A DNA stretch of 50,140 bases, from positions 1 through 50,140 of the forward strand of contig DATDSR010000021.1 of assembly GCA_036517855.1 (NCBI GenBank), written 5' to 3'. Shown here in pieces: positions 2,586 to 37,248 of this stretch; the first letter of the stretch is position 1, and each line of letters begins with the position of its first letter. The position numbers were made by a program, and so were the translations under genes. This stretch comes from Minisyncoccota bacterium. Lineage in GTDB: Bacteria > Patescibacteriota > Minisyncoccia > Phycocordibacterales > DATDSR01. The notes under the pieces were generated by a model. The model ran no database searches, was not told where the DNA came from, and saw only the letters and a program-made list of their open reading frames with translations.

Positions 2586-2624
2586 AATGTCTAATTCTCT
2601 TGCTATAGCAGGCAATTTAGACAT
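2586..2624. repeat. 39-bp structured direct repeat, copy 1 (AATGTCTAATTCTCTTGCTATAGCAGGCAATTTAGACAT)
   Basis: Identical to 3246..3284. The outer arms ATGTCTAA/TTAGACAT and inner arms CTTGC/GCAGG around a TATA loop can form a two-tier hairpin. It abuts the stop codon of the PaaX-like gene. Confidence 0.9.
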
Positions 2625-3217
2625 CAGCGGAGGAAGAAAATATCTCGGAGCCAATGGTCATTCTCGAGAGTATCAACTTCCAAATAAAGTATTTCCTTGC
2701 CAAGCTCGAATCTCCTTTTCAAGATCGTGATGACATCTGAGCATTGGTAGGGATAGGCCCACACGCTTTTCTGAATCGAGACAAAGCCGAGTCCTGTAAG
2801 AAGTGAGCGAAGCTCTTCGCGTACATGCTTTAGGCGCTCGGGAACATCGGAGATGACCAATCTCCATTTGCCATCCCAACGAAATGGTTTGGGTATCGAA
2901 AGGGTTTGCAATTCATAGGCAAGAGCCAGGTCCTCGCCTTTTTCGGTTAATTTGTAAATTGTCTGTGTGCCACTTTTCTCTTTATGTAGGATTTTGCGAC
3001 AGGTGAGATTTTCTAAAACTTCCCGCATATACCACTCTTTTTGACGGGTGCGCTTGTTGTCCCAAAGTTGCACAACGGCCGGAGCCATAAGAGCTGCGGC
3101 AAGGAATCCAGCGGAACTTGCTACCTGTATAACTCCGCGGGCGATGCGACCAAGCTTCTGCTTGCGCTTAAGTTTCCTGACTTCTTCAAGAGACAACTTT
3201 TTATTCTTTTTCTTCAT
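2624..3217 (-). CDS. PaaX-family-like regulator (winged helix plus Cas2/VapD-like ferredoxin fold) with N-terminal membrane segment
   Basis: 197 aa. It has a basic N-terminus and a hydrophobic stretch (VIQVASSAGFLAAALMAPAVV). A wHTH-like KILHKEKSGTQTIYKLTEKG follows. The segment WRLVISDVPERLKHVREELRSLLTGLGFVSIQKSVWAYPY matches the Cas2/PaaX middle-domain pattern. Confidence 0.7.
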   Translation of the reverse strand: MKKKNKKLSLEEVRKLKRKQKLGRIARGVIQVASSAGFLAAALMAPAVVQLWDNKRTRQKEWYMREVLENLTCRKILHKEKSGTQTIYKLTEKGEDLALAYELQTLSIPKPFRWDGKWRLVISDVPERLKHVREELRSLLTGLGFVSIQKSVWAYPYQCSDVITILKRRFELGKEILYLEVDTLENDHWLRDIFFLR

Positions 3218-3245
3218 CCTACTATTTTAGCACTTGCTATACCCG

Positions 3246-3284
3246 AATGTCTAATTCTCTTGCTATAGCAGGCAATTTAGACAT
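3246..3284. repeat. 39-bp structured direct repeat, copy 2
   Basis: Exact copy of 2586..2624, lying in the divergent region between the PaaX-like gene (start 3217) and the CDS starting at 3354. Confidence 0.9.
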
Positions 3285-4582: not shown

Positions 4583-5118
4583 AAGAAGTTTCAAATAAAG
4601 AGTTGATTGAAAAAATAAAGGGTGGAGAGCATGTTAAAGTAAGTCCCCGAAACTACAAATTTGCATTTAGATATATTTCACTCATTGGGCTCATTATCTG
4701 CGCCTTGCTCATTGCAAATTACACTCATTTTGACTCTAGTTCGCAAATCATTTCAGAAAACTCAATCCACGGGCACGCGCATTTGCTCATCACCATCAAG
4801 GGCAAGCACATCATTATCCCGGCCGGTGTTGGTTTGACACAGCAAGTCGAGCATCCAGATATTTTGCATACCCACTTGGCAGATAACGAAATTCATATGG
4901 AGATGGACCCGCCGATTTACGATAAGCAGATAACAGTGGGCGAGTTCTTCAAAGTCTGGGGACAAAGATTCACCAAGCGCTGTATCTTCGACAACTGTAC
5001 TTCGACTTCGCTCAGCACAGGTGGCGGGCTGCACTTCCTAGTCAATGGTCGCCTTAACAACGACTTCGATAAGTATATTATGAGAGATGGCGACGAGATT
5101 GAGATCTTATTCGAATAG
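4579..5118 (+). CDS. membrane-anchored His-rich hypothetical protein
   Basis: It has one TM segment (YISLIGLIICALLIANY) followed by the His cluster HGHAHLL...HPDILHTHLADNEIHME. It is translationally coupled to the CxxC membrane protein. It contains an in-frame copy of the CTTCGACTTCGCTCAG repeat seed. Confidence 0.6.
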   Translation: MKEVSNKELIEKIKGGEHVKVSPRNYKFAFRYISLIGLIICALLIANYTHFDSSSQIISENSIHGHAHLLITIKGKHIIIPAGVGLTQQVEHPDILHTHLADNEIHMEMDPPIYDKQITVGEFFKVWGQRFTKRCIFDNCTSTSLSTGGGLHFLVNGRLNNDFDKYIMRDGDEIEILFE

Positions 5119-5139
5119 TCTGTAAGAGTTTGGTATAAT
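5110..5139 (+). promoter_or_regulatory. putative sigma-70-type promoter (TTCGAA-N18-TGgTATAAT)
   Basis: An extended -10 TGGTATAAT lies at 5131..5139, upstream of the SIMPL gene. Confidence 0.4.
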
Positions 5140-5178
5140 GGCCGTCAGTAGAGGCATAATACTAACTAATTATAAAAT

Positions 5179-6024
5179 ATGGACCAATTAAGTTCGGCTA
5201 AGATGCGTCTCTTTCAGACACTTTCTGTCTTTATGGCAGTTTTGTGTTTGGTGGGTGCGGCCTCTCTCGTTTTCATTATTAAAGCTAACAAGTCGCTCCC
5301 AACGAGTAACAACACCATAAGTGTGGAGGGTAAGGCCGAACGTTACGTGGAGCCCGATATTGCCAAACTTTCTTTTAGCGTAAGCGGTAAGGCTGCCACC
5401 GTTGTGGAGGCTCAAAAGATTGCCACCGATAAAATCAATGCCGCCGTTAAGTATCTTAAGGACCAAGATGTGTCCGACAAAGATGTCAAAACTTCAAGCT
5501 ACCAAGTTTATCCAGAATACAAGTATTATTACGCTCGCCCAGCTGACGCTATTGGTGGTGCCGAAATTCTCTGTTACGTTGACTACTGCCCGCCACCCTA
5601 CAATCAAGAACAAAAAGTTGTGGGTTACCGCGTTGAACAGAGCATCGACCTAACCATCCGCGGCATAAAGAACACGGGCACAATACTTGCTGGTCTTGGC
5701 ACCACCGGTATCCAAAACTTGAATGGCCCTTCGTTTGAGATTGAGGCCTACGAGAAGGTTGCCGAAGAAGTTAAGAACGAGGCTATCAAGGACGCTCGGG
5801 CCAAGGCCAAAGAGCGTGCCAAGTCACTTGGTGTCTCAATCGGCAAGCTCGTGAGTGTGTCGGATGGTTACTACGGTGGTTACGGTTATGCTCGTGCCGA
5901 TGTTAGTATGGCCCAAAACGCTGGCATGGAGGTCAAAGCAGTAGCTCCTTCAGTCGCCCCCGAACTCCCAACCGGTCAAAACAAGATAGTCCAAACCATA
6001 AGCGTCGTCTACGAGATCAACTAA
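5179..6024 (+). CDS. SIMPL/DUF541-family secreted protein
   Basis: It has an N-terminal signal anchor. ISVEGKAERYVEPDIAKLSFSV and the C-terminal LPTGQNKIVQTISVVYEI are typical of SIMPL-domain proteins. Confidence 0.8.
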   Translation: MDQLSSAKMRLFQTLSVFMAVLCLVGAASLVFIIKANKSLPTSNNTISVEGKAERYVEPDIAKLSFSVSGKAATVVEAQKIATDKINAAVKYLKDQDVSDKDVKTSSYQVYPEYKYYYARPADAIGGAEILCYVDYCPPPYNQEQKVVGYRVEQSIDLTIRGIKNTGTILAGLGTTGIQNLNGPSFEIEAYEKVAEEVKNEAIKDARAKAKERAKSLGVSIGKLVSVSDGYYGGYGYARADVSMAQNAGMEVKAVAPSVAPELPTGQNKIVQTISVVYEIN

Positions 6025-6042
6025 GCAAGGTTGACTAAAAGG

Positions 6043-6086
6043 CCCCTCCTAGGGTAGTATATGGCTACCCCGGGAGGGGTTTTTTA
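6043..6086 (+). terminator. rho-independent terminator
   Basis: A long two-tier hairpin (CCCCTCC...GGAGGGG outer, GGGTAG...CTACCC inner) is followed by TTTTTT. Confidence 0.8.
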
Positions 6087-6118
6087 CTAGGAAGTAGTAC
6101 GGGGGAAAATATACACTT

Positions 6119-6301
6119 ATGGCTAAAATTATAGAATTTATAAAGGAAACACGGGGCGAGCTTAAGCACGTTTCTTGGCCTACCCGCAGTCAGACGGTGA
6201 ATGCCACAGCCTTGGTTATTGGTCTTTCGCTTGCCGTGGCTCTCTTCCTCGCTTTCTTTGACTGGCTATTTAGCTTGGCGCTCAAGGCGATAATCTCCTA
6301 A
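6119..6301 (+). CDS. secE: preprotein translocase subunit SecE
   Basis: 60 aa. It shows the FIKETRGELKHVSWPTR motif plus a single TM, and sits immediately upstream of nusG. Confidence 0.85.
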   Translation: MAKIIEFIKETRGELKHVSWPTRSQTVNATALVIGLSLAVALFLAFFDWLFSLALKAIIS

Positions 6302-6302
6302 T

Positions 6303-6866
6303 ATGCCTAAAGCTGTTAGCCCAACAAAACAAGAGTATACCGGCGAGCGTCATTGGTACGCTATCCACACTTACGCTGGATATGAGAACACTGTTTTGCG
6401 CAATTTGAAACAGCGCATTGAGAGCTTGGGTATGCAAGACAAGATCTTCGCCGTACTCGTGCCCACCGAGAAAAAGATTAAGATTAAAGGCGGTAAGCGA
6501 GCCGAGGCGGAGGAGAAGGTCTACCCCGGCTATGTGCTGGTAGACATGATTGTGGATGATGAGAGTTGGTACGTGGTGAGGAACACCCCGCGCGTGACAG
6601 GTTTCGTCGGTTCGGGTACTACGCCTGTGCCACTCTCGCAGAAGGAGATTGATGACCTCTTCGGCCGTATGGGTGCCTCTGTTACCAAACACAATATCGA
6701 CCTTGAAGTTGGTGAGGAGGTCAAGATTGAGGACGGCCCCTTCAAAGAGCTTGAGGGCAAAGTGGCCGAAGTAGACGACGTGCGTGGCAAAGTGAAGGTG
6801 CTCGTGAATATGTTTGGCCGCGAAACCCCAGTGGAGTTAGACTTTTTGCAGGTTAAGAAAATCTAA
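6303..6866 (+). CDS. nusG: transcription termination/antitermination factor NusG
   Basis: It has an NGN domain (HWYAIHTYAGYENTV, YPGYVLVDM) and a KOW domain (GPFKELEGKVAEVD...VLVNMFGRETPVEL). Confidence 0.95.
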   Translation: MPKAVSPTKQEYTGERHWYAIHTYAGYENTVLRNLKQRIESLGMQDKIFAVLVPTEKKIKIKGGKRAEAEEKVYPGYVLVDMIVDDESWYVVRNTPRVTGFVGSGTTPVPLSQKEIDDLFGRMGASVTKHNIDLEVGEEVKIEDGPFKELEGKVAEVDDVRGKVKVLVNMFGRETPVELDFLQVKKI

Positions 6867-6890
6867 CTCGAAATGAGCAATGTACCAATG

Positions 6891-6965
6891 TGCAATTTGC
6901 AAACAATGAACAAAATGAATAAATTTTTAAACATTGAGTCATTGAATCATTGTTTTCAAATTGCA
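6891..6965. repeat. AT-rich long hairpin built from AAATTGC-type heptads (nusG-rplK intergenic)
   Basis: TGCAATTTGCAAACAATGA (6891..6909) pairs with TCATTGTTTTCAAATTGCA (6947..6965) at 18 of 19 positions. The adjacent 6957..6990 sequence recurs inside ileS. Confidence 0.75.
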
Positions 6966-6993
6966 AATTAAAACATTCTAACATTAAACCAAA

Positions 6994-7416
6994 ATGGCAA
7001 AGAAAGTTATAAAGAGACTCAAGATTCTGGCTCCCGGTGGTGCGGCAACTCCTGCACCTCCTATTGGCCCCACCCTTGGTCAAGCGGGTATCAACATCGG
7101 CGAGTTCGTAAAGCGCTTCAACGAGGCCACCAAAGATATGCGAGGCGAGACCATCCCAGCCGAGATTACTGTGTACGAAGATCGTTCGTTCGACTTTGTA
7201 CTCAAAACTCCGCCCGCGGCCGCCCTCATACTGAAGGCCATCGGCAAAGAGAAGGGTAGTGGCACACCCAACACGGCCAAGATAGGCAAACTCACTAAAG
7301 CTCAGGTTAAGGAAATTGCCGAGAAGAAAATGCCTGACCTAAACGTCACTTCCATCGAAGCCGCTATGAGAGTCATCGAAGGCACTGCCCGTTCTATGGG
7401 CGTGGAAGTTAAGTAG
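6994..7416 (+). CDS. rplK: 50S ribosomal protein L11
   Basis: The motifs [24 protein letters not shown] and [18 protein letters not shown] are a full-length uL11 signature. Confidence 0.95.
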
Positions 7417-7439
7417 AACTTATGTGCTAAGATGCCGGT

Positions 7440-7697
7440 GTGCTTATTCGCTTTACCAAACATGCTGAAAGAAAGTTTGGCCTGTTGCGCTTGCACGGCG
7501 TGAATGTTTCCCAAGAGCAAGTCATCGAGACAATCGAAAAACCAGACCGCCTCGACGTTGTTTCGAGGTATCCGCTGGCCATTGCCCAAGGTGAGTTAGA
7601 CAAAAGGCATGTTCTTAGGGTAGTATACAGACATGAAAGGGGCGGGGTGGCTGTGATAACCTTTTACCCTGGTCGTAAGTCGCAATATGAAAAATAA
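7440..7697 (+). CDS. DUF4258-family toxin-like protein
   Basis: GTG start. FTKHAERKFGLLRLHGVNVSQEQVIETIEKPD matches the DUF4258 pattern. It overlaps the downstream partner by 11 nt. Confidence 0.65.
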   Translation: MLIRFTKHAERKFGLLRLHGVNVSQEQVIETIEKPDRLDVVSRYPLAIAQGELDKRHVLRVVYRHERGGVAVITFYPGRKSQYEK

Positions 7698-7920
7698 AGA
7701 AACTAAAATCTCATACGATCCTGATGCTGATGTTTTGAGTATGGAAGTGCCAGGTAATAAAAAAATTGATTACGCCACAGAGGCTGGCGACTTTGTGGTA
7801 CATTTTTCCAAAGAAAACATTCCGGTACTTGTGGAAGTTTTACAGGCTTCTCGTTTTCTCAAGCGCAGTCGCAAAGAAGTAATACACGCAAGCCCGATGC
7901 TTGCTCGTGCTTTGGCATAA
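7687..7920 (+). CDS. DUF2283-family antitoxin-like protein
   Basis: KISYDPDADVLSMEV is the hallmark YDxxxDxL motif of DUF2283. The gene is paired with the DUF4258 gene. Confidence 0.65.
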   Translation: MKNKETKISYDPDADVLSMEVPGNKKIDYATEAGDFVVHFSKENIPVLVEVLQASRFLKRSRKEVIHASPMLARALA

Positions 7921-7950
7921 TTGCCACGGTTTTGCCCCCCGCCTGCGGAA

Positions 7951-8015
7951 GCATCGAAGGCGCTATGAGAGTCATCGAAGGTACTGCCCGCTCCATGGGT
8001 GTGGAGGTGAAGTAG
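7951..8015 (+). pseudogene. orphan duplicate of the last ~21 codons of rplK
   Basis: It aligns to 7352..7416 with 57/65 identities by hand alignment. It translates to [20 protein letters not shown]-stop, against [20 protein letters not shown]-stop in rplK, and has no upstream rplK body. Confidence 0.85.
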
Positions 8016-8041
8016 GCTTCAGAACACAATATAAAATTAAG

Positions 8042-8080
8042 ACGACCACGGGGAGGCCCGTGGTCGTTTGTGTTTGTGTG
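8042..8080. terminator. bidirectional hairpin terminator
   Basis: An 11-bp stem ACGACCACGGG/CCCGTGGTCGT with a GAGG loop is followed by a T-rich run on the plus strand and by CTTAATTTTAT on the minus strand. Confidence 0.75.
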
Positions 8081-8095
8081 CGCTAGGGTTGAGGT

Positions 8096-8650
8096 TCAGG
8101 CGACAGGGGCCTCCTTGTTTGCACCCAGCGAGACCTGCTCGACCACTACCATGCAGTGGTCTGGCCGGTTGCCGGTTACCAACAGGCATTGGCCGAGCTC
8201 TCCCATGACCTGGCCATTCAGGCCGCCGATGATTATGCCAGACACGGGCCTTCCGCAAACAATGCGGCCGTTTTCATGCCGGTGCATCTTCGGACAAGGG
8301 GCGAAGATCTCCGCCTTGCGACTCGCCTGAGTGGTGTCGACTCTGATAGCTGCCCGCTCGCGCCCTTGAGTCTCCTCCGGTCGGGTCTGCCTCAAAAGTT
8401 CCTGGGCTTGTTTCAAGTCACCCACGGGGAAGACCACGTAACTCTTGACCAGTGTCCTAACTCTCTTTGGTGGCTTTATCGACTTAGCGATCGAATCGGC
8501 CGGGTTTATGTGAACGAAATCTCCTCCTTTCATCATGCGTCTGAATCTGGCTGCCACCGAAAGGGTGGCCGTGCCGACGAGCACGTGTGATTCGATGATT
8601 GGCAACCGCACGTGCCCATGGCGGACCCGAGTTGAACCGTTCAGCCCCAT
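8096..8650 (-). CDS. hypothetical protein (no family recognised)
   Basis: 184 aa. A strong SD (AGAGGAGGT) lies 7 nt upstream of ATG 8650. It has a possible C/H cluster, CPKMHRHENGRIVC. The overlapping plus-strand ORF 8156..8590 is judged less likely. Confidence 0.55.
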   Translation of the reverse strand: MGLNGSTRVRHGHVRLPIIESHVLVGTATLSVAARFRRMMKGGDFVHINPADSIAKSIKPPKRVRTLVKSYVVFPVGDLKQAQELLRQTRPEETQGRERAAIRVDTTQASRKAEIFAPCPKMHRHENGRIVCGRPVSGIIIGGLNGQVMGELGQCLLVTGNRPDHCMVVVEQVSLGANKEAPVA

Positions 8651-8783
8651 TGTCCTGACCTCCTCTTTACCGAAAGTGAGACCTTGTCTTCCCCGTTTGC
8701 AAATCTACTCCAGGCGTTCCGAAATTACAAGCTTGTGCGTGGGACGGAAATAGTTTAAGGTGATGATGGAAAGGGGAACACAA

Positions 8784-9422
8784 ATGTTCAAAGGCAAATA
8801 TATAGTGCTCGAAGGTATCGAAGGTTCGGGCAAAGGCACCCAAGCTACGAGACTCGTGCAATGGCTTGGAGACTTTGCCAAGGTGATCAAGGTCCGTGAG
8901 CCGGGCCAGACGCCGACAGGCTTGAAGATACGGGAAATCCTTCTGGATAAGAATTCTGATTTAGCCACCACAGAAGAGCTACTCTTGTTTTTCGCCGACA
9001 GGGGGATGACCATGCGTGGCATGATCGTGCCAGCTCTCGAGCGTGGAGAGTACGTGGTGGCAGATCGTAGCTATCTCTCCACTTTTGCTTACCAGATAGC
9101 GGGACGCGAGAATAAGGGTCTCCTGCCGCTTTTCGAGGATTTGCTGACCCGCGTAGCTCACAAGATTGATCTGGCCCTTGTGCTAGATTTGCCTGCCGAA
9201 CAAGGGCTCGCACGTGTGAATCTGCGACAAGTGCAAACAGGACAGGCCATCGACCGTTTCGAGCAGGAGCAAATTGCCTTCCATGAGAGAGTGCGCAATG
9301 GGTATTTGGAGGGCGCTAGACGCTACGCGACCGTTACCGAAGTTATCGATGCTTCTGTCCCCGAAGAGGCGGTTTGGAGGCAAGTAATTCTACACGTCCG
9401 TCGGCACATGCTCGATGAGTAA
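8784..9422 (+). CDS. tmk: thymidylate (dTMP) kinase
   Basis: It has the P-loop LEGIEGSGKGTQ, then REPGQTPTG, then the DRSYLSTFAYQ (DRY/F) motif. ATG 8784 follows GGAAAGGGGA. The ORF could also start at 8760. Confidence 0.9.
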   Translation: MFKGKYIVLEGIEGSGKGTQATRLVQWLGDFAKVIKVREPGQTPTGLKIREILLDKNSDLATTEELLLFFADRGMTMRGMIVPALERGEYVVADRSYLSTFAYQIAGRENKGLLPLFEDLLTRVAHKIDLALVLDLPAEQGLARVNLRQVQTGQAIDRFEQEQIAFHERVRNGYLEGARRYATVTEVIDASVPEEAVWRQVILHVRRHMLDE

Positions 9423-9430
9423 AAGAAATA

Positions 9431-9471
9431 GGGCCCCAACCGTTCCGTGAGTTACGGAATGGAAGGGGCCC
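9431..9471. terminator. bidirectional hairpin between convergent tmk and thyX-like genes
   Basis: GGGCCCC...GGGGCCC outer arms enclose CCGTTCCGT/ACGGAATGG inner arms. Confidence 0.6.
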
Positions 9472-9477
9472 TTCAAG

Positions 9478-10830
9478 CTACCTCACTGTGATGTCATGTT
9501 CGCCGCGCCGGATGTCGAAGCGAGATGGTTCCTTGTCGAGATGGAGCACAAGGCCGTGTGGACCGAATTGCTCCTCCAGACTCCTCGCAATCAGGCCCGC
9601 CTTCTGGGCCAGGGTCGGGTGTACAAAACGGCTTGCGCGTAACTCCGCGAGGTAAACCAGCGAGGGCAAGCCTCCGGTAACCATGTTTGGTATCCGGTAA
9701 CCCATTGGCAAATAGTATTGCGCCTCCTTGCTACCAGCTCCCAGCTTCTCGAGTCTCTCCTTACTGCTTGATATAAAGCCGAGTGCTCTGGTTTGCAGAT
9801 CAGCAGGAAGTTCAGAGAGATACCAAGGATGGAAACCGTGACGGGTGGAGAGCAAGGGCATGCGCTGGTACACACCCCGATGCCTTTGGATGTCACGATA
9901 TGACCCAAAATCGAGAAGGAATTCGTACCTTACCATCCCCAAGTCGCCAAGGAAAGCGGGCAACTCGGTCTTGGCTGGGCGCTTGGAAAGTAGCCGCTCG
10001 AAGGTCTTAAGGTCGGAGCTGTGGATGTCGCACCGCGAGAGCCCGAACTCGGGGCACTCCCAGTCGCTGTATCCGTATTCCGGCATCCACCAAGAGTTGT
10101 AGTCCTCCTTGTCTTGGTATCGTTTGCTCGAGAAGGAGGATGGCGCGGCCTCCTTCAAGGCGTCCTCGATCGCTTCTGCCACAGTCCGGACTTCCGCTAG
10201 TGGGTGATGCCGCAGCAGATCGAGTTTGTCGGCAAACTGGCGCAGATTCGAATGCCAGGAGACGTTGGTGGCGGCTCCGGCGGGCAGAAAAGCTCGCATA
10301 ATGTCGAAAGCGCGAGCTCGGATAGCCTTCTCCCAGACGCTTTCTTTTTCACCCTCTTGTCTCGGGTATCTAAGCGCCAAGGCAGACACCACTTGGTTCA
10401 GACCTTCCAGATAGAAGTGCCGCCAGTTTTCCTGGATTCTTGCGCCCTCGGAATTCCCCAGCGGATCGACGAAGGGTTGTTTGCTGAAGTCCAGGTAGCG
10501 TGTAGACGACTCCTGACCGGAATATAGGCGATTGTCCTGCACCGCCTTAGCCACGGGCATCGACACACGCTCGATGAAAATTGTGGCGCTCCCGCAGTCA
10601 CCGATGGACTTGTGGCCGTAGCCTACATAGTAGGTGGCCATGAACTTCTCCGGACCCTTCTCGGCCAAGACTGTTAGGTTGTCTTCAACCTTTTCAACTG
10701 AGCGCGAGTAGAGAGCCTGGAGCATGGCGTCCGCTTCCGGACCGATCAGTGCCCCTGTGTTTAGCACCACGACTCTTCCTCCGCCCGGCAAATCCCGTGT
10801 TACATGTTTGAGATCTTTGATTGTGGCCAT
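9478..10830 (-). CDS. thyX: ThyX-like flavin-dependent thymidylate synthase, internally duplicated (two ThyX-like halves in one chain)
   Basis: ORF 9478..10875. The start is set at ATG 10830, preceded by GGAAAGGGGGTGG. Half 1 has GHKSIGDCGSATIFIE...YSGQESSTRY (the S..S.RY part of the ThyX motif). Half 2 has YRDIQRHRGVYQRM (the RHR part). Both halves carry a ThyX-like C-terminal helix block (NVSWHSNLRQF..., MVTGGLPSLVYLAELRASRFVHP). Confidence 0.7.
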   Translation of the reverse strand: MATIKDLKHVTRDLPGGGRVVVLNTGALIGPEADAMLQALYSRSVEKVEDNLTVLAEKGPEKFMATYYVGYGHKSIGDCGSATIFIERVSMPVAKAVQDNRLYSGQESSTRYLDFSKQPFVDPLGNSEGARIQENWRHFYLEGLNQVVSALALRYPRQEGEKESVWEKAIRARAFDIMRAFLPAGAATNVSWHSNLRQFADKLDLLRHHPLAEVRTVAEAIEDALKEAAPSSFSSKRYQDKEDYNSWWMPEYGYSDWECPEFGLSRCDIHSSDLKTFERLLSKRPAKTELPAFLGDLGMVRYEFLLDFGSYRDIQRHRGVYQRMPLLSTRHGFHPWYLSELPADLQTRALGFISSSKERLEKLGAGSKEAQYYLPMGYRIPNMVTGGLPSLVYLAELRASRFVHPTLAQKAGLIARSLEEQFGPHGLVLHLDKEPSRFDIRRGEHDITVR

Positions 10831-10928
10831 GAGCCACCCCCTTTCCTGTCGAGAGGCTAGCACAAGCAGTTTCAAAATGCTATGCTCTTTTCAGAATTGA
10901 TCGCCGAAAACAGGCGACAGGAGGAACC

Positions 10929-12029
10929 TTGAACGAATTTGGAGCATTGCCTAGACAAGCACTTGCTGGCCTTATCGAGGCCGGCAGGATTAAAGGTATA
11001 GACACAGCACTTGCCCAACCGGCATCGCTCGACTTGCCGGTTTCGGAGGAGTGGTACAGGGTCAACAGCATCTTCCTCCCGCGAACGGGTGAGCCGGTGC
11101 GCGATTGTCTCGCTCGTCTCGACGCCCAAGAGCATTCGGTCGGGACGATACTTGAGCGTGGCGTCAACTATCTCTCGCGGGTAGCGGGAGAGTTTGCCTT
11201 CGTGCCGAGCGTCTACGGCTACACCAATCCGAAGTCAACCACAGGTCGTACCGACGTGCATGTGCGCGTGGTAGCCGATGGAGTGCCAAGTTACGATTCA
11301 GCGGCTCCTGCAGGGTGGAAGGGCGAGTTGTGGCTCTTGGTGACACCCAAATCGTTCCCTGTGTTGGTGCCGGTTGGCACGGCTCTGGCCCAGTTGCGTT
11401 TGTGCAACCACAACACCAAGCTTGCGCGGACGGAACTTGAGCTCGAAGTGGAGAGACGCAAGCTCCTCTGGACGCTCGCTGGCGAAACTATCCACTGTGA
11501 GGACCAGTTAGTGCGGGTGGATGAAGGCTCGCTCGTGCTCACAGTGAATCTCTCTGGAGAGACCATTGGTTGGGAGTGCCTTGAGCCTTCAACCACTTTT
11601 GATTTCGGGGCACCTAAGGGCACGATTGATCCCAGCGAGTTCTTCGTCCCTCTCATTGGCCATAACGGTTCTCTGCGTTTGAGAGAGGGGCGTTTCTACA
11701 TCCTCTCAACACGTGAAGCTGTGCGCGTACCGCCCGAACTTGCCTGTGAGATGAGACCGCTTGATCCACGTTGGGGCGAGCTACGCACTCACTACGCAGG
11801 CTTCATCGATCCGGGTTGGGGTTGGGGCAAAAAGGGTGAAGGCAAAGGCCGGCCGATTACCCTTGAAGTGCGACCGTTCGAGAATATGACCCTCACCCAC
11901 GGCCAACCCATCGGGAGAATCCGGTTCGAGCGGATGATGGACGTGCCTGACGTACTCTATGACGCTGGCACTTCTCACTACTCTGTTCAGTCGGGACCTC
12001 GGCTGGCCAAGCAATTCAAGCACCCGTGA
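10929..12029 (+). CDS. long double-domain dCTP deaminase-like protein (DCD family)
   Basis: TTG start after AGGAGGAA. The C-terminal half has ILSTREAVRVPPELACEM...HYAGFIDPGWGWG...ITLEVRPFENMTLTHGQPIGRIRFERM, the dCTP deaminase/dUTPase-fold pattern. The N-terminal half repeats the fold in degenerate form. Confidence 0.7.
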   Translation: MNEFGALPRQALAGLIEAGRIKGIDTALAQPASLDLPVSEEWYRVNSIFLPRTGEPVRDCLARLDAQEHSVGTILERGVNYLSRVAGEFAFVPSVYGYTNPKSTTGRTDVHVRVVADGVPSYDSAAPAGWKGELWLLVTPKSFPVLVPVGTALAQLRLCNHNTKLARTELELEVERRKLLWTLAGETIHCEDQLVRVDEGSLVLTVNLSGETIGWECLEPSTTFDFGAPKGTIDPSEFFVPLIGHNGSLRLREGRFYILSTREAVRVPPELACEMRPLDPRWGELRTHYAGFIDPGWGWGKKGEGKGRPITLEVRPFENMTLTHGQPIGRIRFERMMDVPDVLYDAGTSHYSVQSGPRLAKQFKHP

Positions 12030-12040
12030 GTTTCGGGATA

Positions 12041-12074
12041 GGGCCTGGTGTTCGCACTGGGCCCGCCTTTTTTG
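12041..12074 (+). terminator. rho-independent terminator
   Basis: A 10-bp stem GGGCCTGGTG/CACTGGGCCC closed by a TTCG tetraloop is followed by GCCTTTTTT. Confidence 0.8.
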
Positions 12075-12095
12075 TATACTGGTTGAAAGAAGATT

Positions 12096-13856
12096 ATGAC
12101 GGTTTCTGAAACTATAAAAAAGCAAATAGGGGAGGCGCTTACTAAGCTGGGCCTTTTGGAGGTGCCTGCACCGAGCGAAGTCGAGGTGGAATTGGCCAAG
12201 GATATGGCACATGGGGATTATGCCAGCAATGTGGCTTTGATTTTGGGCAAGCAGTTGGGTAAGGATCCTAAAGAGTTGGCCGAGCAGATTTGCAAAGAGA
12301 TAGGATCTGATGCGCAGGGTTATATTGAGAGATGTGAAGTGGCCGGAGCGGGCTTCATCAACTTTTGGTTGTCTGAAAAATTTTACGCTGATACTCTTAA
12401 AGATGCTTTAGGCGAAAACCCCACTTCGCCAAGGCTTCGCGGGGCGAGGTTTGGGTGGGCGAGTGAGTTGAGAGGGAAAAAGGTTATGATTGAATTTTCA
12501 CAGGCCAATCCATTTAAGCAACTACACATCGGACACTTTGTCGGTACTGTTTTGGGTGAGTGTTACGCGCGGCTCCATGAGGCATCAGGGGCAAGTGTGT
12601 TGCGTGCCAATTACCAAGGTGATGTGGGAGTGCATGTGGCCTGCTCTTTGTATGGTATGCGCGAAATGCGGGAGACGTTACCAAATGAGGGGGCGGAGTT
12701 GACGGAGAAGACAGAGTTTTTAGGTAAGGCGTATGCTTTTGGAGCGAAGCAGTATAAGGAGAGCCCGGATATTAAAAGTGAGATAGATGAGATAAATAAG
12801 AAGCTTTATCAGAAGAGTGATCAAGAATTGAATGAACTTTATGAAATGGGAAAGCGTTGGAGCCTTGCTCATTTCGATACCATATACAAGCGATTGGGTA
12901 CTCGTTTTGACCACCTTTTCTTTGAGAGCGAGATGGCTCCCAAAGGCCTTGAGGTAATTGCGGCCCATCGGGAGGTTTTTGAAGATAGCGAAGGCGCGGT
13001 AGTTTTCCATGCTGAGAAATATGGTTTACACACAAGAGTATTTATTTCGTCCGCTGGTTTGCCCGTGTACGAGGCCAAGGAGCTAGGTCTTAATAAACAC
13101 AAATTTGATGTTGCCCCACTTGACCTATCTATCGTAGATACTGGTAATGAGATCAATGACTACTTCAAGGTCTTGATGAAAGTAATGGAGCTAACAATCC
13201 CCGAAGTGGCCAAGCGTACCAAACACGTTTCGCATGGCATGTTGCGACTGTCTACTGGCAAAATGAGCTCACGTACCGGTAACGTAATCACGGGTGAATC
13301 TGTGATGAACGACGCGGTGGCCAATTTACCCCCGAGCGAAATTTCTCTGGAGGATAAGGACGTCATTGCTATAGGCGCCATTAAGTATTCGATACTCAAG
13401 CAGGCCCCTGGGCGAGACATAATATTTGATATGGAGAAGTCGCTCTCACTTGAAGGGGATTCGGGGCCTTACATCCAGTACGCATACACAAGAGCACAAA
13501 GCGTGCTCTTGAAAGCTCAAGCACCAAAGTTCAAAGTTCAAACAAATCCCAATCTTCAAAACTTAAACGATAGCGAGAAAAAGTTAATGAGATTGATTGG
13601 CAGATTTCCTGAAATAGTTAATGAGGCACAAAAACTACTCGCTCCCCAGGTTGTTTGCACCTACTTGATAGAACTAGCAGGGGAGTTCCATCATTTTTAC
13701 GCTACTACCCGTATTGCCGACCCCTCGACAGAGCTCGGGGCAGGTGCCAATGTTGGCGAGATACGTACCCGTAGATTAGCCCTCACTGCCGCCCTGGCTC
13801 AAACCATCCAAAACGGCTTGTGGATATTGGGCATCGGCACAGTTGACAAAATGTAG
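12096..13856 (+). CDS. argS: arginine--tRNA ligase
   Basis: A class I enzyme with ANPFKQLHIGHFVG (HIGH region) and an anticodon-binding C-terminus ending in ...DKM. It contains a low-complexity insert, TSPRLRGARFGWAS. Confidence 0.95.
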   Translation: MTVSETIKKQIGEALTKLGLLEVPAPSEVEVELAKDMAHGDYASNVALILGKQLGKDPKELAEQICKEIGSDAQGYIERCEVAGAGFINFWLSEKFYADTLKDALGENPTSPRLRGARFGWASELRGKKVMIEFSQANPFKQLHIGHFVGTVLGECYARLHEASGASVLRANYQGDVGVHVACSLYGMREMRETLPNEGAELTEKTEFLGKAYAFGAKQYKESPDIKSEIDEINKKLYQKSDQELNELYEMGKRWSLAHFDTIYKRLGTRFDHLFFESEMAPKGLEVIAAHREVFEDSEGAVVFHAEKYGLHTRVFISSAGLPVYEAKELGLNKHKFDVAPLDLSIVDTGNEINDYFKVLMKVMELTIPEVAKRTKHVSHGMLRLSTGKMSSRTGNVITGESVMNDAVANLPPSEISLEDKDVIAIGAIKYSILKQAPGRDIIFDMEKSLSLEGDSGPYIQYAYTRAQSVLLKAQAPKFKVQTNPNLQNLNDSEKKLMRLIGRFPEIVNEAQKLLAPQVVCTYLIELAGEFHHFYATTRIADPSTELGAGANVGEIRTRRLALTAALAQTIQNGLWILGIGTVDKM

Positions 13857-14551: not shown

Positions 14552-14654
14552 GTAAATGGCAAATGGCAAATGGCAAATGTTTGGCGGTAGGATTTTGGTT
14601 TTAATCAGTATTTTTGTTTTCACATTTACCATTTACCATTCCACATTTACCATT
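14552..14654. repeat. heptad-periodic inverted repeat element, (AAATGGC)n ... (CATTTAC)n, copy A
   Basis: The left arm is GTAAATGGCAAATGGCAAATGGCAAATGT. The right arm is CACATTTACCATTTACCATTCCACATTTACCATT. It overlaps the 5-prime end of the CDS at 14556. Confidence 0.8.
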
Positions 14655-23132: not shown

Positions 23133-26100
23133 ATGGCAGATAACAAGACAAATAAAGATATAAAATCAGACGTGGCTAAGCGCGAGGAGGAGACTCTGCG
23201 CTTTTGGCAAGAGAAAGGCATATTTGAAGCCACTTTGTCAAATAGACAAGGCAAACCCGAGTTTGTCTTCTACGATGGGCCGCCTTTCGCAACCGGTTTG
23301 CCTCATACGGGATCATTGCTCTCTTCGGTCATAAAAGATGTTATCCCGCGCTATAAAACAATGCGCGGTTTCTATGTGCGTCGCCGTTGGGGTTGGGATA
23401 CCCACGGTCTACCTATCGAGAATATGGTTGAGAAGGATTTGGGTTTGAAGAGTAAGAAGGATATCGAGGCGATGGGCATCGAGAAGTTCAACGAGCTTTG
23501 TCGTGCCCAAGTGCTTGAATATGTGAATGATTGGAAGCGCTACATTGACCGCATTGGTCGCTGGGTAGACTTCGACAACTCATACAAAACGATGGATGCC
23601 ACTTACACAGAGAGTGTGTGGTGGGCGCTTAAGCAAATGCACGAAAAAGGTTTGCTCTATGAAGGGCGCAAGGTACTTATGTATTGTCCGCACTGTGAGA
23701 CGCCATTGGCCAAAGCCGAGATAGCGATGGATAACAGCTACAAGGATGTAACCGAAGAAGCCGTGACTGTTAAATTTAAATTGCAAATTGCAAATTCAAA
23801 ACATTTCAACATTGCAGATACGCCCACGTATCTGCTGGCCTGGACCACTACGCCGTGGACTCTGCCCGCAAATGTAGCTTTGGCTGTCGGGCCTGAAATT
23901 GAATACTCACTGGTATCCCTCCCCGAACCCTCCCTTAATTTAAGGGAGGGCAGGGTGGGATATGTAGTCGCCTCTGCCCTTGTCCCCAAAATCTTTGGCG
24001 AAAATATAAAAATAGAGAAAACTTTCTTTGGCAAAGAGCTGGAGGGACTTGAATATGAGCCTCTCTATGAACTTGATGCGGTGAAGAAAACTGGCAAGCG
24101 CTCGCACTACGTTGCCCTTGCAGATTTTGTGAACACGGAGGATGGGACGGGCATAGTGCATACGGCTGTTATATATGGCGAGGATGACTATCAGTTGGGG
24201 CTCAAACAGGATTTGCCCATGGTGCCACTCTTAAATCCAAACGGTACTTATAATAACGATGCGCCCGAGTTTCTGCGTGGGCAATATATAAAGAAAGCCG
24301 ACAAGATGGTTATTGAGGACCTCGAGAGGCCGGAGCGAAATCTTTTATTCGCAAAAGCGCCCAACACTCACAGCTATCCGCATTGCTATCGATGTGGCAC
24401 AGCCCTCATATATAACGCCCTCTCAAGTTGGTTTATAAATATCCAAAAGATTAAGGCGCGGATGTTAGAGCTTAACGAAAATATTAATTGGGTGCCAGAG
24501 CACTTAAAGCACGGCCGTTTTAAAAACATCGTGGAGAGTGCCCCCGACTGGACAATCTCACGCAATCGTTATTGGGCCAGCCCTTTGCCGATATGGAAGT
24601 GCGCCGAGTGTAAAAAAGTTGAAGTGGTTGGCTCGCTGGAGGAGCTTAGCGGCAAGGCGGCTAAGTCGGGAAACACATATCTCTTAATGCGGCACGGTGA
24701 GTCGGTGTCTAATTTGGGAGAGTTGATAGACGCGATACCAGGCGGTTCTGGTGATGTGCTGACAGAGAGAGGCAAAGAGCAAGTCACTAAAAGTGCAATT
24801 AAGTTGAGCAAAGTGGATTACATATTCCACTCACCTTTCAATCGTTCCAAGCAAAGCGCGCAGATTGCAGCGCAAGTTCTTGGAGTTTCGCCAGAGAATA
24901 TTGTAGAAGACGATCGTGTAGGTGAGTACCAGGCACCTGGTTGGGAGGGTCGTACATGGTCGCAACTATGGGCAGAAGTTTCAAATGCGAGAGATAATCT
25001 TCCACATACACTAGGTCGTATGTTTTCTTTCCTGGGAGGAATTGATAACAAGTATCGCGGCAAAAAAATTCTTGTGATCTCTCACGGTCTGCCAATTTGT
25101 CTGTTGATGGGGATTGATCGAGAACTCGCCAATGCAGAAGTAAACGAGTTCAAATACATACCAACCCCGCGCAACGCTCGCGGAGAGCTCGACTTCCATC
25201 GGCCATACATAGATGAGATAAAACTCAAGTGCCCTTGTGGTGGCGAGATGGTAAGGATACCTGAAGTGGTGGACTGTTGGGTAGAGTCCGGCTCGATGCC
25301 TTTTGCCGAGTATCATTACCCGTTTGAAAACAAGAGCGAGTTTGAGAAGCGTAGCCCAGGAGATTTCATAGCTGAATATGTGGGTCAAACACGCACGTGG
25401 TTTTATTATTTGCACACCCTTTCAACTTTGCTATTCGGCCATGAAGCATTTAAGAATGTTGTTGTGACTGGTAATATCCTTGCCGCCGATGGGGGCAAGA
25501 TGAGCAAGAGCAAGGGTAATTACACCGATCCACTTGAACTCATAGCCCGCTACGGCGCGGACGCCTATCGTTACCACTTGATGACAAGTGTGGTAATGGC
25601 TGCTGAGGACTTCAACTTTACCGACGATGGAGTGAAGGAAGTGCAGCAGCGTCTGGTGAACATCCTTTGGAACTCACTCCAGTTTTACCTAATGTACGCA
25701 GGAGAAACTCAAAAGGCAAAAGGCAAAGGTCAAAATTACAATTCAAAATCTGAAAATGTTTTGGATAAGTGGATTCTCGCTCGCTTGGTCGAGCTGCACA
25801 AGGAAGTAACAGAGAATTTGGATAAATACGATACGATTAAAGCTGGTCGCCCAATAAAAGATTTCGTCACCGATTTTTCAACCTGGTACATCCGCCGCTC
25901 ACGCGATCGCTTCAAGAGTGATGACGTGGCAGATAGGGAAGCGGCAATCGGCACAACCCGCTTTGTGCTCCTCGAACTCTCTAAACTCATAGCTCCCTTT
26001 ATGCCCTTCCTCGCCGAGCAAATCTACAAAGCCGTCGGCGGCCCACTCGATTCAGTCCACCTCGAAAACTGGAGTGAATTTAAGGTTGAGGAAGAACATT

Positions 26101-26576
26101 CCAACATTCTTAAGAACATGAGAGTGTCACGTGAGGTGGTAACCCTTGCGCTTGATGCACGTTCGGCCGCGAACATAAAAGTGAGACAGCCTCTGCAGTA
26201 TTTAAGATATCAAACAAACAAACTCGAGGCAGAATACGAAAAGATAATCGCGGACGAAGTAAACGTAAAGGAAGCCAAGCATACAGAGGAAATTCGTGAG
26301 CAAGACGGTCGGGTGATTAAAGAATCAAATGGTGTGCGCGTTGGCCTTAACATAGAAATCACCCCAGAACTCAAACTCGAAGGCGATATGCGTGATTTAG
26401 TGCGCCAAATTCAAGAAAAGCGCAAAGAAATGGGCCTTGCTCCCGGCGACAAAATCACTGTCACCTTGCCCCAATCACTGAGCGACCTGGTCGCTAAGTA
26501 TGAGGCAGAAATCAAAAAAGCCGTCCACGCCAATGGTTTGACCATGGGCGACGAACTTAAAATAGAAAAAGCATGA
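23133..26576 (+). CDS. ileS: isoleucine--tRNA ligase with nested histidine-phosphatase-like domain
   Basis: PPFATGLPHTGS is the HIGH region and WTTTPWTLPAN the editing-domain motif. WKCAECKK ... KCPCGG are the zinc knuckles, followed by CWVESGSMPF and GGKMSKSKGN (KMSKS). At 1147 aa it is longer than the conserved parts account for. Confidence 0.95.
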   Translation: MADNKTNKDIKSDVAKREEETLRFWQEKGIFEATLSNRQGKPEFVFYDGPPFATGLPHTGSLLSSVIKDVIPRYKTMRGFYVRRRWGWDTHGLPIENMVEKDLGLKSKKDIEAMGIEKFNELCRAQVLEYVNDWKRYIDRIGRWVDFDNSYKTMDATYTESVWWALKQMHEKGLLYEGRKVLMYCPHCETPLAKAEIAMDNSYKDVTEEAVTVKFKLQIANSKHFNIADTPTYLLAWTTTPWTLPANVALAVGPEIEYSLVSLPEPSLNLREGRVGYVVASALVPKIFGENIKIEKTFFGKELEGLEYEPLYELDAVKKTGKRSHYVALADFVNTEDGTGIVHTAVIYGEDDYQLGLKQDLPMVPLLNPNGTYNNDAPEFLRGQYIKKADKMVIEDLERPERNLLFAKAPNTHSYPHCYRCGTALIYNALSSWFINIQKIKARMLELNENINWVPEHLKHGRFKNIVESAPDWTISRNRYWASPLPIWKCAECKKVEVVGSLEELSGKAAKSGNTYLLMRHGESVSNLGELIDAIPGGSGDVLTERGKEQVTKSAIKLSKVDYIFHSPFNRSKQSAQIAAQVLGVSPENIVEDDRVGEYQAPGWEGRTWSQLWAEVSNARDNLPHTLGRMFSFLGGIDNKYRGKKILVISHGLPICLLMGIDRELANAEVNEFKYIPTPRNARGELDFHRPYIDEIKLKCPCGGEMVRIPEVVDCWVESGSMPFAEYHYPFENKSEFEKRSPGDFIAEYVGQTRTWFYYLHTLSTLLFGHEAFKNVVVTGNILAADGGKMSKSKGNYTDPLELIARYGADAYRYHLMTSVVMAAEDFNFTDDGVKEVQQRLVNILWNSLQFYLMYAGETQKAKGKGQNYNSKSENVLDKWILARLVELHKEVTENLDKYDTIKAGRPIKDFVTDFSTWYIRRSRDRFKSDDVADREAAIGTTRFVLLELSKLIAPFMPFLAEQIYKAVGGPLDSVHLENWSEFKVEEEHSNILKNMRVSREVVTLALDARSAANIKVRQPLQYLRYQTNKLEAEYEKIIADEVNVKEAKHTEEIREQDGRVIKESNGVRVGLNIEITPELKLEGDMRDLVRQIQEKRKEMGLAPGDKITVTLPQSLSDLVAKYEAEIKKAVHANGLTMGDELKIEKA
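24650..25190 (+). other. in-frame histidine phosphatase (PGAM/His_Phos_1-like) domain inserted in IleRS
   Basis: The motifs are YLLMRHGESVSN (RHG), LTERGKEQ, FHSPFNRSKQSAQIAA, DDRVGEYQAPGWEGRTW and KILVISHGLPI (SHG). They fall at about aa 507-685 of the ileS product. Confidence 0.7.
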
Positions 26577-31942: not shown

Positions 31943-32329
31943 ATGAGAACAATCGAGAAATTAGTTTTGAAGCATCTTCGAGATCGGGGGTGGGACAAAC
32001 TGCGGCCTTCTGACCTTGCCAAGTCTATTAGTATTGAGGCGGCTGAGCTGCTTGAGCTCTTTCAGTGGGTGAGTGTGACACTTGAAGAGACAAAGAAGGA
32101 TAAAGGAAAGATTAAGGCAATCAAAAATGAGTTGGCCGATGTTTTAATATATTGCCTTGAGATGTCAGTGCTACTTGGTTTAGATACAGAAAAGATTGTA
32201 AAGACCAAACTTGCTTATGTGGCGAAAAAGTACCCGGCCAAACTTATGAAAAAGCGCCAAGTCGAGGCAGGGTCAGACTCTGACGTGTATTGGAAGATTA
32301 AGAAGGCTTATAGAATGAAAGGCTTATGA
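31943..32329 (+). CDS. MazG-like nucleoside triphosphate pyrophosphohydrolase (dCTPase-type)
   Basis: The all-alpha NTP-PPase motifs are EAAELLELFQW and ELADVLIYCLEMS. Confidence 0.8.
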   Translation: MRTIEKLVLKHLRDRGWDKLRPSDLAKSISIEAAELLELFQWVSVTLEETKKDKGKIKAIKNELADVLIYCLEMSVLLGLDTEKIVKTKLAYVAKKYPAKLMKKRQVEAGSDSDVYWKIKKAYRMKGL

Positions 32330-36948: not shown

Positions 36949-36956
36949 TGTTAAAT

Positions 36957-37041
36957 CTTAAATGGCAAATGGTAAAAGTAGATTTTAAAATTATTTGTTC
37001 AGGCGGGGTTCACATTTACTATTCTACATTTACCATTTAAC
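36957..37041. repeat. heptad-periodic inverted repeat element, copy B (ssb-rpsR spacer)
   Basis: The left arm is CTTAAATGGCAAATGGTAAAAGTAG. The right arm is CACATTTACTATTCTACATTTACCATTTAAC, ending at the rpsR ATG. It belongs to the same family as 14552..14654. Confidence 0.8.
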
Positions 37042-37248
37042 ATGCCCACCATGCAATGCCCATTTTGCGCAAATAACGTAGAGCACATCGATTACAAAGA
37101 TATTGAGACACTCAAGAAGTATCTCGACACCTTTGCCCGCATAGGGAGAAAGCGCAACACCAACGTGTGTTCGCTCCACCAACGCAAGCTAGCGCGTGCC
37201 GTCAAGCAAGCCCGCTTCATGGCCCTCCTTCCCTTCGTCGCTTACTAA
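37042..37248 (+). CDS. rpsR: 30S ribosomal protein S18
   Basis: The bS18 signature is CPFC...IDYKD...LKKYL...GRI..RR.T..C..HQRKLA.A.K.AR. Confidence 0.9.
   Translation: MPTMQCPFCANNVEHIDYKDIETLKKYLDTFARIGRKRNTNVCSLHQRKLARAVKQARFMALLPFVAY

Follow-up and report, generated by a model that had tools for sequence, protein, structure and literature searches.

We conclude that the genes for thymidine nucleotide (dT) supply that lie between rplK and argS in a 50,140-nt stretch of DNA from a Minisyncoccota bacterium (contig DATDSR010000021.1 of assembly GCA_036517855.1, hereafter the window) very probably form a normal housekeeping cluster, placed at an ancestral site of Patescibacteria (the Paceibacteria type of the Candidate Phyla Radiation, CPR) and serving as the organism's own dT route. 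The genes encode a thymidine monophosphate (dTMP) kinase (Tmk), a long ThyX-type thymidylate synthase and a long two-domain dCTP deaminase-like protein (DCD), and they are accompanied by an orphan open reading frame (ORF) of 184 amino acids (aa), ORF184. An initial annotation, made from the letters of the sequence, had read all four as an apparently acquired island directly behind a broken L11 operon, at the place where rplA-rplJ-rplL should be. Statements below on the absence or copy number of genes in the window cover these 50 kb of the genome.

Gene identities and conserved neighbourhood

The four ORFs, their strong Shine-Dalgarno (SD) sites and the hairpins at their borders were confirmed by direct reading (Table 1), and Pfam and NCBIfam scans bore out the identities first proposed for three of the products, namely a dTMP kinase, a ThyX-like protein of ~450 aa and a 366-aa double-domain DCD. 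Tmk matches PF02223 (2e-35), scores 131.3 bits on the TIGR00041 equivalog model (cut-off 83.25), and carries the P-loop GIEGSGKGT together with the motifs DRS...AYQ and ADRSYLSTFAYQ. DCD is matched by PF06559 (DCD_N), PF22769 (DCD) and PF22569 (DCD_C), all at ~1e-35 to 1e-37, with 121 and 127 bits for DCD_N and DCD_C versus gathering cut-offs of 21 and 22. The match of ThyX to PF02511 (1.7e-18, 67.5 bits versus a cut-off of 24.8) spans residues 62-246 of the 465-aa ORF, equivalent to 47-231 of the 450-aa protein. For this long ThyX, more than 3,372 homologues were found, nearly all of ~450 aa and at 55-68% identity, and the named ones (Uhrbacteria, Lloydbacteria, Harrisonbacteria, Yonathbacteria, Buchananbacteria, Paceibacterota and similar) all belong to Patescibacteria. 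For dTMP, this does not agree with the initial premise that CPR organisms usually depend on salvage, and neither does a 2025 study of groundwater Patescibacteria (PMC12455944), which counts dTMP synthesis as part of their minimal set of biosynthetic capacities. A dT module in a CPR genome is thus not unexpected, and the core genes of these reduced bacteria include those for making dTMP.

The position of the cluster was compared across 80 Patescibacteria genome loci with a long ThyX (L010-L089), in which the proteins of the window were located by tblastn. L11, 53-78% identical to the window rplK product, was found near thyX in 48/80 loci and NusG in 47/80, with a typical distance of 0.05-8 kb between thyX and the secE-nusG-rplK block. 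A deaminase supplying deoxyuridine nucleotides (dU) was located near thyX in 70/80 loci, tmk adjoined thyX in 37/80 (median distance 121 bp), and argS was near it in 26/80 (median ~3 kb). Among the loci with >5 kb on both flanks (n=42), L11/NusG lay near thyX in 31 and the deaminase in 41. In the closest relative, GCA_964348575.1 (ThyX 69%, NusG 86% and L11 78% identical), the order is SIMPL-secE-nusG-rplK, a terminator, thyX in convergent and dcd in divergent orientation, and the gap between rplK and thyX holds no genes. Where relatives do have genes in this gap, these are a short Dcd (178-225 aa), or a dCMP deaminase and a small kinase, and rplA is not among them.

Only in Moran- and Buchananbacteria, among the loci inspected, does rplA follow rplK, and there rplK-rplA is followed by kinases, a dCMP deaminase, in some cases dut, and then thyX. 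Several paralogous small P-loop kinases (~180 aa) stand behind rplK-rplA in L089 (Moranbacteria, 5522-9972) and L027 (Buchananbacteria, 4920-9961), and the same chromosomal landmark here carries a more extensive set of nucleotide-metabolism genes. No rplJ-rplL was seen downstream of rplK in any of the related loci inspected. The recurrence of secE-nusG-rplK next to dT synthesis across relatives indicates that the linkage is old and that rplJ-rplL is not to be expected after rplK in this lineage; the cluster does not interrupt the L11 operon. A conserved Patescibacteria neighbourhood thus ties secE-nusG-rplK to dT synthesis.

Similarity of ThyX tracks that of NusG across relatives (Spearman 0.45, p = 0.0015), and the best matches of ThyX, L11, NusG and SIMPL come from one and the same genome. 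There are no tRNA genes in the window, no integrase or recombinase domain was detected by Pfam or NCBIfam in any gene of the region, and the sole flanking repeat (64 nt) brackets a toxin-antitoxin-like cassette (7417-7951), not the dT genes. The cluster looks vertically inherited. The labels of an inserted and acquired island do not hold for it: the closest relative has thyX and dcd at this very site, which across the lineage is home to thyX, tmk and a deaminase, synteny extends over dozens of Patescibacteria genomes, and the divergence of ThyX follows that of NusG. What the initial annotation had named as the marks of an ordinary housekeeping cluster is largely what we see, in that the genes are syntenic and vertical-looking; the canonical catalytic residues are present as well, but are split between duplicated halves of the proteins, as described below.

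Several points weigh against this reading. The four genes lie 3-8 GC points above the window mean (0.53-0.59 versus 0.50), which is more than in relatives. At the same time, thyX is GC-richer than its flanks in 42/60 relatives, so that the rise is largely gene-intrinsic, and other stretches of the window are as GC-rich as the dT genes. Both ThyX and DCD score below the cut-offs of their NCBIfam equivalog models (43 versus 87.9 bits on TIGR02170 and 253.7 versus 283 bits on NF005734, respectively), and we know of no member of the long-ThyX clade that has been assayed. The window contains no dut, thyA, short dcd or dCMP deaminase gene, so that no gene in it is assigned to the step from dUTP to dUMP. 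Finally, beyond a single 66% match, the nearest named homologues of Tmk are non-CPR proteins at 45-47% identity, compared to 26-43% for CPR Tmks encoded next to thyX, and tmk may have been replaced or relocated locally, along with ORF184.

Alternative readings of the locus

The last of these points can be developed into the alternative that survives best, according to which thyX and dcd are ancestral and the ORF184-tmk segment alone (~8070-9475) was recently brought in or rearranged, maybe from outside CPR, displacing or relocating the native tmk. We regard such a partial island as possible but rather unlikely. In its favour, rplK of the closest relative runs straight into thyX with no tmk or ORF184 between them, and most relatives carry tmk on the opposite side of thyX, in divergent orientation. 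The named Tmk homologues at 45-47% come mainly from Nitrospirota, Kiritimatiellia and Thermodesulfobacteriota, one of the top matches sharing its contig with LptD, which adjoins it. Further to that, ORF184 has the highest GC content at third codon positions in the region (0.69) and no homologue anywhere, and several contigs of the same population break in or next to ORF184 and tmk. However, Tmk is fast-evolving, a value of 45% versus 40-43% is not discriminating, and a Parcubacteria Tmk at 41% is among the matches. The order x(-), tmk(+), thyX(-) is common to the window and to contig L091, whose Tmk is the 66% match, hence the event would not be very recent. The segment is also devoid of integrase, tRNA gene and flanking repeat. 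Even if true, this alternative would yield merely a rearranged housekeeping gene with no new function.

Under the preferred reading of a vertically inherited housekeeping cluster, one local change consists in tmk sitting between rplK and thyX, with the orphan ORF184 divergent from it, and this placement of ORF184 and tmk is specific to the organism's close relatives. A block of ~38 bp just 5' of tmk, at 8722-8759(+) (AAATTACAAGCTTGTG...GAAATAGTTTAAG; also AAATTACAAGCTTGTG...GAAAATAGTTTA), aligns with L091 324-361, while the rest of the ORF184-tmk spacer cannot be aligned with L091; the DNA further 5' of the block is very GC-rich (59-66%) in both. The block is likely a promoter or operator. The metagenome contigs of the same population that end in or beside tmk or ORF184 are L003, L005, L006, L092 and L097, and their ends may stem from differences between strains, or from the 64-nt repeat close by having hampered assembly.

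ORF184 itself is probably a real gene, young or fast-evolving, and stands outside the conserved dT cluster. Its codon score is weakly positive (+0.057 per codon) and best in its own frame. No match was found in Pfam, NCBIfam, PHROG, PADLOC or PDB, no homologue among 5.8e9 clusters, and none in an exhaustive HMMER search of 1.84e9 representatives, aside from one artefact (P0122, a 7,361-aa protein with 42 weak matches to a repeat). No counterpart exists in the 80 related loci or in L091 with its same tmk-thyX arrangement. The 16 contigs with ORF184 were retrieved by exact-sequence look-up, and the protein is therefore identical in all of them because of the way they were chosen. An AlphaFold2 (AF2) model built without an alignment is unusable, with a mean predicted local distance difference test score (pLDDT) of 36. 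Two other identities of the region were tried and rejected. As a remnant of rplA, short dcd, dCMP deaminase or a kinase it failed, since the rplK 3' remnant was all that matched when 7900-8760 was searched by tblastn with 6,700 ORFs of the related loci; as a structured RNA it gave no Rfam match and folding z-scores of -1.3 and -0.7.

It is very improbable that all four genes came in together by horizontal transfer, as a self-contained dT module which displaced rplA-rplJ-rplL. Such a transfer would fit the GC rise of 3-8 points across 8-12 kb, the hairpins at both borders, and the lack of rplA in the window (tblastn) and of L1, L10 and L7/L12 domains in a Pfam scan of ten of its mid-sized ORFs. 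Against it, the arrangement secE-nusG-rplK...thyX, dcd, tmk...argS is shared by the closest relative and by dozens of Patescibacteria genomes, ThyX diverges in step with NusG, and equally GC-rich stretches occur elsewhere in the window. As to the supposedly displaced genes, no rplJ-rplL was seen behind rplK in the related loci inspected, and rplA was seen there only in Moran- and Buchananbacteria, which still have thyX further downstream.

We give equally little credence to ORF184 being the missing dUTPase, as suggested initially, or another enzyme of the pathway. The gene does sit by tmk, where relatives have dut, has a strong SD, and its low-confidence AF2 model is beta-rich in the C-terminal half. 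However, alignment by hhalign to a 33-sequence Dut profile from relatives scored 10.5, below shuffled controls (12.7 +/- 2.2), and a match noted by eye (GIIIGGLNGQV versus GVIDSGYRGE) failed the same comparison. There is no Pfam or NCBIfam dUTPase match, ORF184 is not conserved at the same position of L091, it is on the strand opposite to tmk, and with no homologue in the databases it would be an essential enzyme limited to one population, which is unlikely.

The least credible proposal is that the thyX-tmk-dcd trio serves pyrimidine hypermodification or nucleotide-pool defence and not plain dTTP supply: the long ThyX is indeed divergent, below its equivalog cut-off and split in its motif, with homologues at 33% identity in Vibrio jumbo phages, and Tmk has a weak PADLOC match (candidate family PDC-M51B, 46 bits), but Tmk scores far higher on the canonical dTMP-kinase model (131 bits), PADLOC has no match for ThyX, DCD or ORF184, PHROGs give only thymidylate synthase, kinase and dCTP deaminase matches, and next to the trio there is no glycosyl-, amino- or pyrophosphoryl-transferase, nor any other gene for modification. 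The trio is flanked by rplK and argS, and in the lineage the cluster is found almost universally, alongside core translation genes and in company with ordinary dut or dCMP deaminase. At E <= 1e-5 the long DCD had no homologue in phages, and the authors who described phage BONAISHI saw no DNA-modification genes next to its long-ThyX homologue. The ancestral position after rplK does not point to gene transfer, to DNA modification of a phage-like kind or to defence, and the value of this result is mainly corrective.

Nucleotide supply and split-motif enzymes

The pathway assigned at the outset, dCTP to dUTP (Dcd type), dUMP to dTMP (ThyX) and dTMP to dTDP (Tmk), is in agreement with the family matches and conserved neighbourhoods. 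We propose that the two-domain DCD would deaminate dCTP to dUTP, which a dUTPase encoded elsewhere, presumably similar to the classical Dut found beside tmk in relatives, would convert to dUMP. The long ThyX would then methylate dUMP to dTMP, using FAD, NAD(P)H and methylene-tetrahydrofolate, and Tmk would phosphorylate dTMP to dTDP.

Among the 80 loci, the dU-supplying enzyme encoded next to thyX is a dCMP deaminase in 29, a short Dcd in 24 and a long DCD in 17, never two of them together; seven loci have neither deaminase nor dut, and three have dut only. This is non-orthologous displacement inside a conserved cluster, with three non-homologous or distantly related enzymes substituting for each other in one neighbourhood. 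A genuine Dut (~140 aa) is encoded in 36/80 loci, including 10 of the 17 with a long DCD. Where long-DCD loci have both dut and tmk, the order is dut-tmk-thyX-dcd, and rplK comes next in those whose flank extends that far (for example L030, L054, L064 and L085). The presence of dut beside tmk in 10/17 long-DCD relatives suggests that the long DCD is monofunctional and that a classical Dut carries out the step from dUTP to dUMP. In the window, a MazG-like NTP pyrophosphohydrolase (31943-32329(+), 128 aa; PF12643, 6.8e-13; no NCBIfam match) could, going by its family, be an alternative candidate for house-cleaning dUTP hydrolysis.

ThyX is probably an internally duplicated single chain with one composite active site, as judged from its predicted structure and motifs. 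In the AF2 model (pLDDT 86.4), residues 82-228 and 300-425 both show the secondary-structure order E-H-E-H-H-E-H-H, and a Foldseek search against PDB returned ThyX structures in all top 50 matches listed, with target-normalised TM scores of ~0.5-0.58. When the N-half profile is aligned to Mycobacterium tuberculosis ThyX, the equivalents of H69, S105, R107, Y108 and R172 are invariant. The contiguous signature RHRxxSxxxxSxR does not occur in a single domain and is divided between the halves: the N half reads QD(W/N)xLYSGQESSTRY, where Q-D-(W/N)-x replaces RHR, and the C half reads RDIQRHRxxxQRMP, which keeps R-H-R and has lost the Ser/Arg part, both being invariant in 25 homologues. The C half further contains a TG...LRAS..H block, weakly alignable with the canonical VTGN...MRASEH. 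Fold evidence for the C half alone is weaker (E = 0.2 on Pfam Thy1, and E = 0.3 in hhalign for the TG...LRAS..H block), hhalign found no significant sequence self-similarity between the halves, so that the duplication rests on predicted structure and motifs, and the full-length ThyX profile found no ThyX among PDB sequences where the N-half profile alone did. The complementary split would fit a pseudo-heterodimer fused into one chain, which would have a single composite site.

A similar arrangement is seen in the adjacent DCD. Each of the Dcd catalytic residues occurs once per chain, with K-S-T-T-G-R in the N half, and IDPGW and TLE in the C half. Across the homologues, N halves keep K-S-x-x-G-R and are devoid of the Asp and the catalytic Glu, and C halves keep IDPGW and T-L-E; the roles of the Ser/Arg loop, the Asp of IDPGW and the Glu of TLE we take to be those of Escherichia coli Dcd. 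From these motifs, DCD is probably also an internally duplicated single chain with one composite active site. The long DCD adjoins thyX in 17/80 relatives and is 53% identical in the closest one; it belongs to a Patescibacteria clade, with 43-53% identity among relatives.

Whether the ~450-aa ThyX amounts to an uncharacterised architectural class is, in our judgement, evenly balanced. Such a protein would be a single-chain pseudo-heterodimer, with the N half supplying the Ser/Arg/Tyr side of the substrate pocket and the C half the RHR side, and its dimer would mimic the classical homotetramer but have only two active sites; the adjacent DCD would be similarly complementary, and ORF184 maybe a young, lineage-restricted gene. 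Literature searches gave nothing specific on tandem or long ThyX or on thyX in Patescibacteria, and no mention of 2R9Q or PF06559 in the texts searched. What novelty the locus has is mild and lies solely in ThyX and DCD being built as pseudo-dimers with split motifs. Two enzymes of one pathway built as fused pseudo-dimers with split motifs could be of interest for the enzymology of ThyX as a drug target.

Accompanying features and relation to known systems

Table 1. Genes, repeats and hairpins of the region between rplK and argS (positions in the window)
Feature	Position	Strand	Description
rplK (L11)	6994-7416	+	Pfam Ribosomal_L11_N and Ribosomal_L11; final gene of the secE-nusG-rplK block
Repeat copy 1	7353-7416	+	64-nt direct repeat; functional rplK 3' end
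Cassette	7440-7920	+	DUF4258-like ORF 7440-7697 and DUF2283 ORF 7687-7920
Repeat copy 2	7952-8015	+	Orphaned rplK 3' end, last 21 codons and stop
Hairpin	8040-8069	both	13 bp, GC-rich, terminator-like; between rplK remnant and ORF184 3' end
ORF184	8096-8650	-	184 aa; orphan ORF
tmk	ORF 8760-9422; likely true start ATG 8784	+	212 aa (MFKGKYIVLEG...)
Hairpin	9431-9471		GGGCCCC...GGGGCCC; between convergent tmk and thyX
thyX	ORF 9478-10875; gene 9478-10830	-	465 aa from TTG; 450 aa from ATG 10830 (MATIKDL)
dcd (long DCD)	10929-12029	+	366 aa, starts at TTG
Hairpin and T-run	12041-12064	+	Intrinsic-terminator-like, 3' of dcd
argS	12096-13856	+	Pfam Arg_tRNA_synt_N, tRNA-synt_1d and DALR_1; right-hand neighbour of the cluster

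By direct reading, the SD sites are GAGGAGG, 8 nt ahead of the ATG, for ORF184, AAGGGGGTG ahead of the ATG for thyX, AGGAGGA ahead of the TTG for dcd, and AAAGGGGA ahead of ATG 8784 for tmk, whose ORF has further upstream GTG/ATG codons at 8760 and 8766. The 450-aa start of thyX agrees with all homologues. A promoter-like site for argS (12051-12080) overlaps the terminator-like hairpin behind dcd.

A second local change took place at the 3' end of rplK, where a small DUF4258/DUF2283 cassette was inserted, with a 64-bp duplicate of that end left behind. The two ORFs overlap by 11 nt; that of DUF2283 scores 30.5 bits versus a Pfam cut-off of 23, and the DUF4258-like one 18.7 bits, under its cut-off of 25. 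From its domains, the pair resembles a toxin-antitoxin system. The cassette is AT-richer than its surroundings (GC 0.45) and absent from all 80 related loci. Copies of the repeat are 89% identical, and relatives' L11 C-termini match the second copy in tblastn. Six of the seven differences between them are synonymous third-position changes (the other is Ala to Gly), which indicates that both copies evolved as coding sequence before they were joined. The repeat can thus be interpreted as the footprint of an incoming cassette that carried its own rplK end, the orphaned copy deriving from a functional, diverged rplK allele, and the hairpin behind the second copy looks like the original rplK terminator. 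A toxin-antitoxin-like cassette bracketed by a duplicated gene end offers a clean footprint of how such cassettes insert.

Elsewhere in the window, A/T-rich short tandem motifs of the types AAATGGCAAATGGCAAATG and CATTTACCATTTACCAT occur at 6955-6985, 14553-14580, 23775-23805, 36952-36979, 14619-14653 and 37009-37057. Several lie within intergenic regions or at their edges, among them one immediately 5' of rplK and another where ORF 14556 begins, and the copy at 23775-23805 falls within ORF 23133-26576. A 48-nt direct repeat (94% identical; 2577-2624 and 3237-3284) flanks a gene with a PaaX_M domain (2624-3217(-)). Both copies hold the imperfect palindrome TTGCTATAGCAGGCAA, and the pair could be the trace of an insertion, or else an operator or promoter that was duplicated.

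Compared to known systems, Tmk is an ordinary dTMP kinase of the TIGR00041 type, save for where and in which direction its gene lies with respect to thyX, and for the ambiguity of its nearest neighbours. DCD matches the two-domain Agrobacterium protein of PDB 2R9Q (PF06559 and PF22569) over its full length and with equal domain order (7e-53, residues 23-364). Unlike the E. coli-type homotrimeric Dcd (TIGR02274) and the bifunctional DCD-DUT, it has its motifs spread over two fused halves, and the reaction is presumably the same; the short Dcd genes (178-225 aa) of relatives are alternatives to it at this locus.

ThyX shares with classical members of PF02511 (Thermotoga maritima TM0449, M. tuberculosis Rv2754c) the Thy1 N half, the fold, the invariant residues and a context of dUMP supply and tmk. 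It differs from them in being about twice as long (450 aa), with two ThyX-like halves and a split signature, and whereas the classical enzyme is a homotetramer with four sites, the protein of the window would be expected to form a dimer of pseudo-dimers with two. Chlamydiae, too, have a ThyX of extended length (roughly 530 aa). Two-half ThyX proteins are likewise encoded by Vibrio jumbo phages (BONAISHI ORF269 and vB_VmeM-Yong; MK308674-MK308677, MH595538), at 33% identity over 84-93% of the length. These viral proteins are much more divergent than the Patescibacteria ThyX and stand in another gene context, and Parcubacteria gave the best match of ORF269 in the BONAISHI phage paper.

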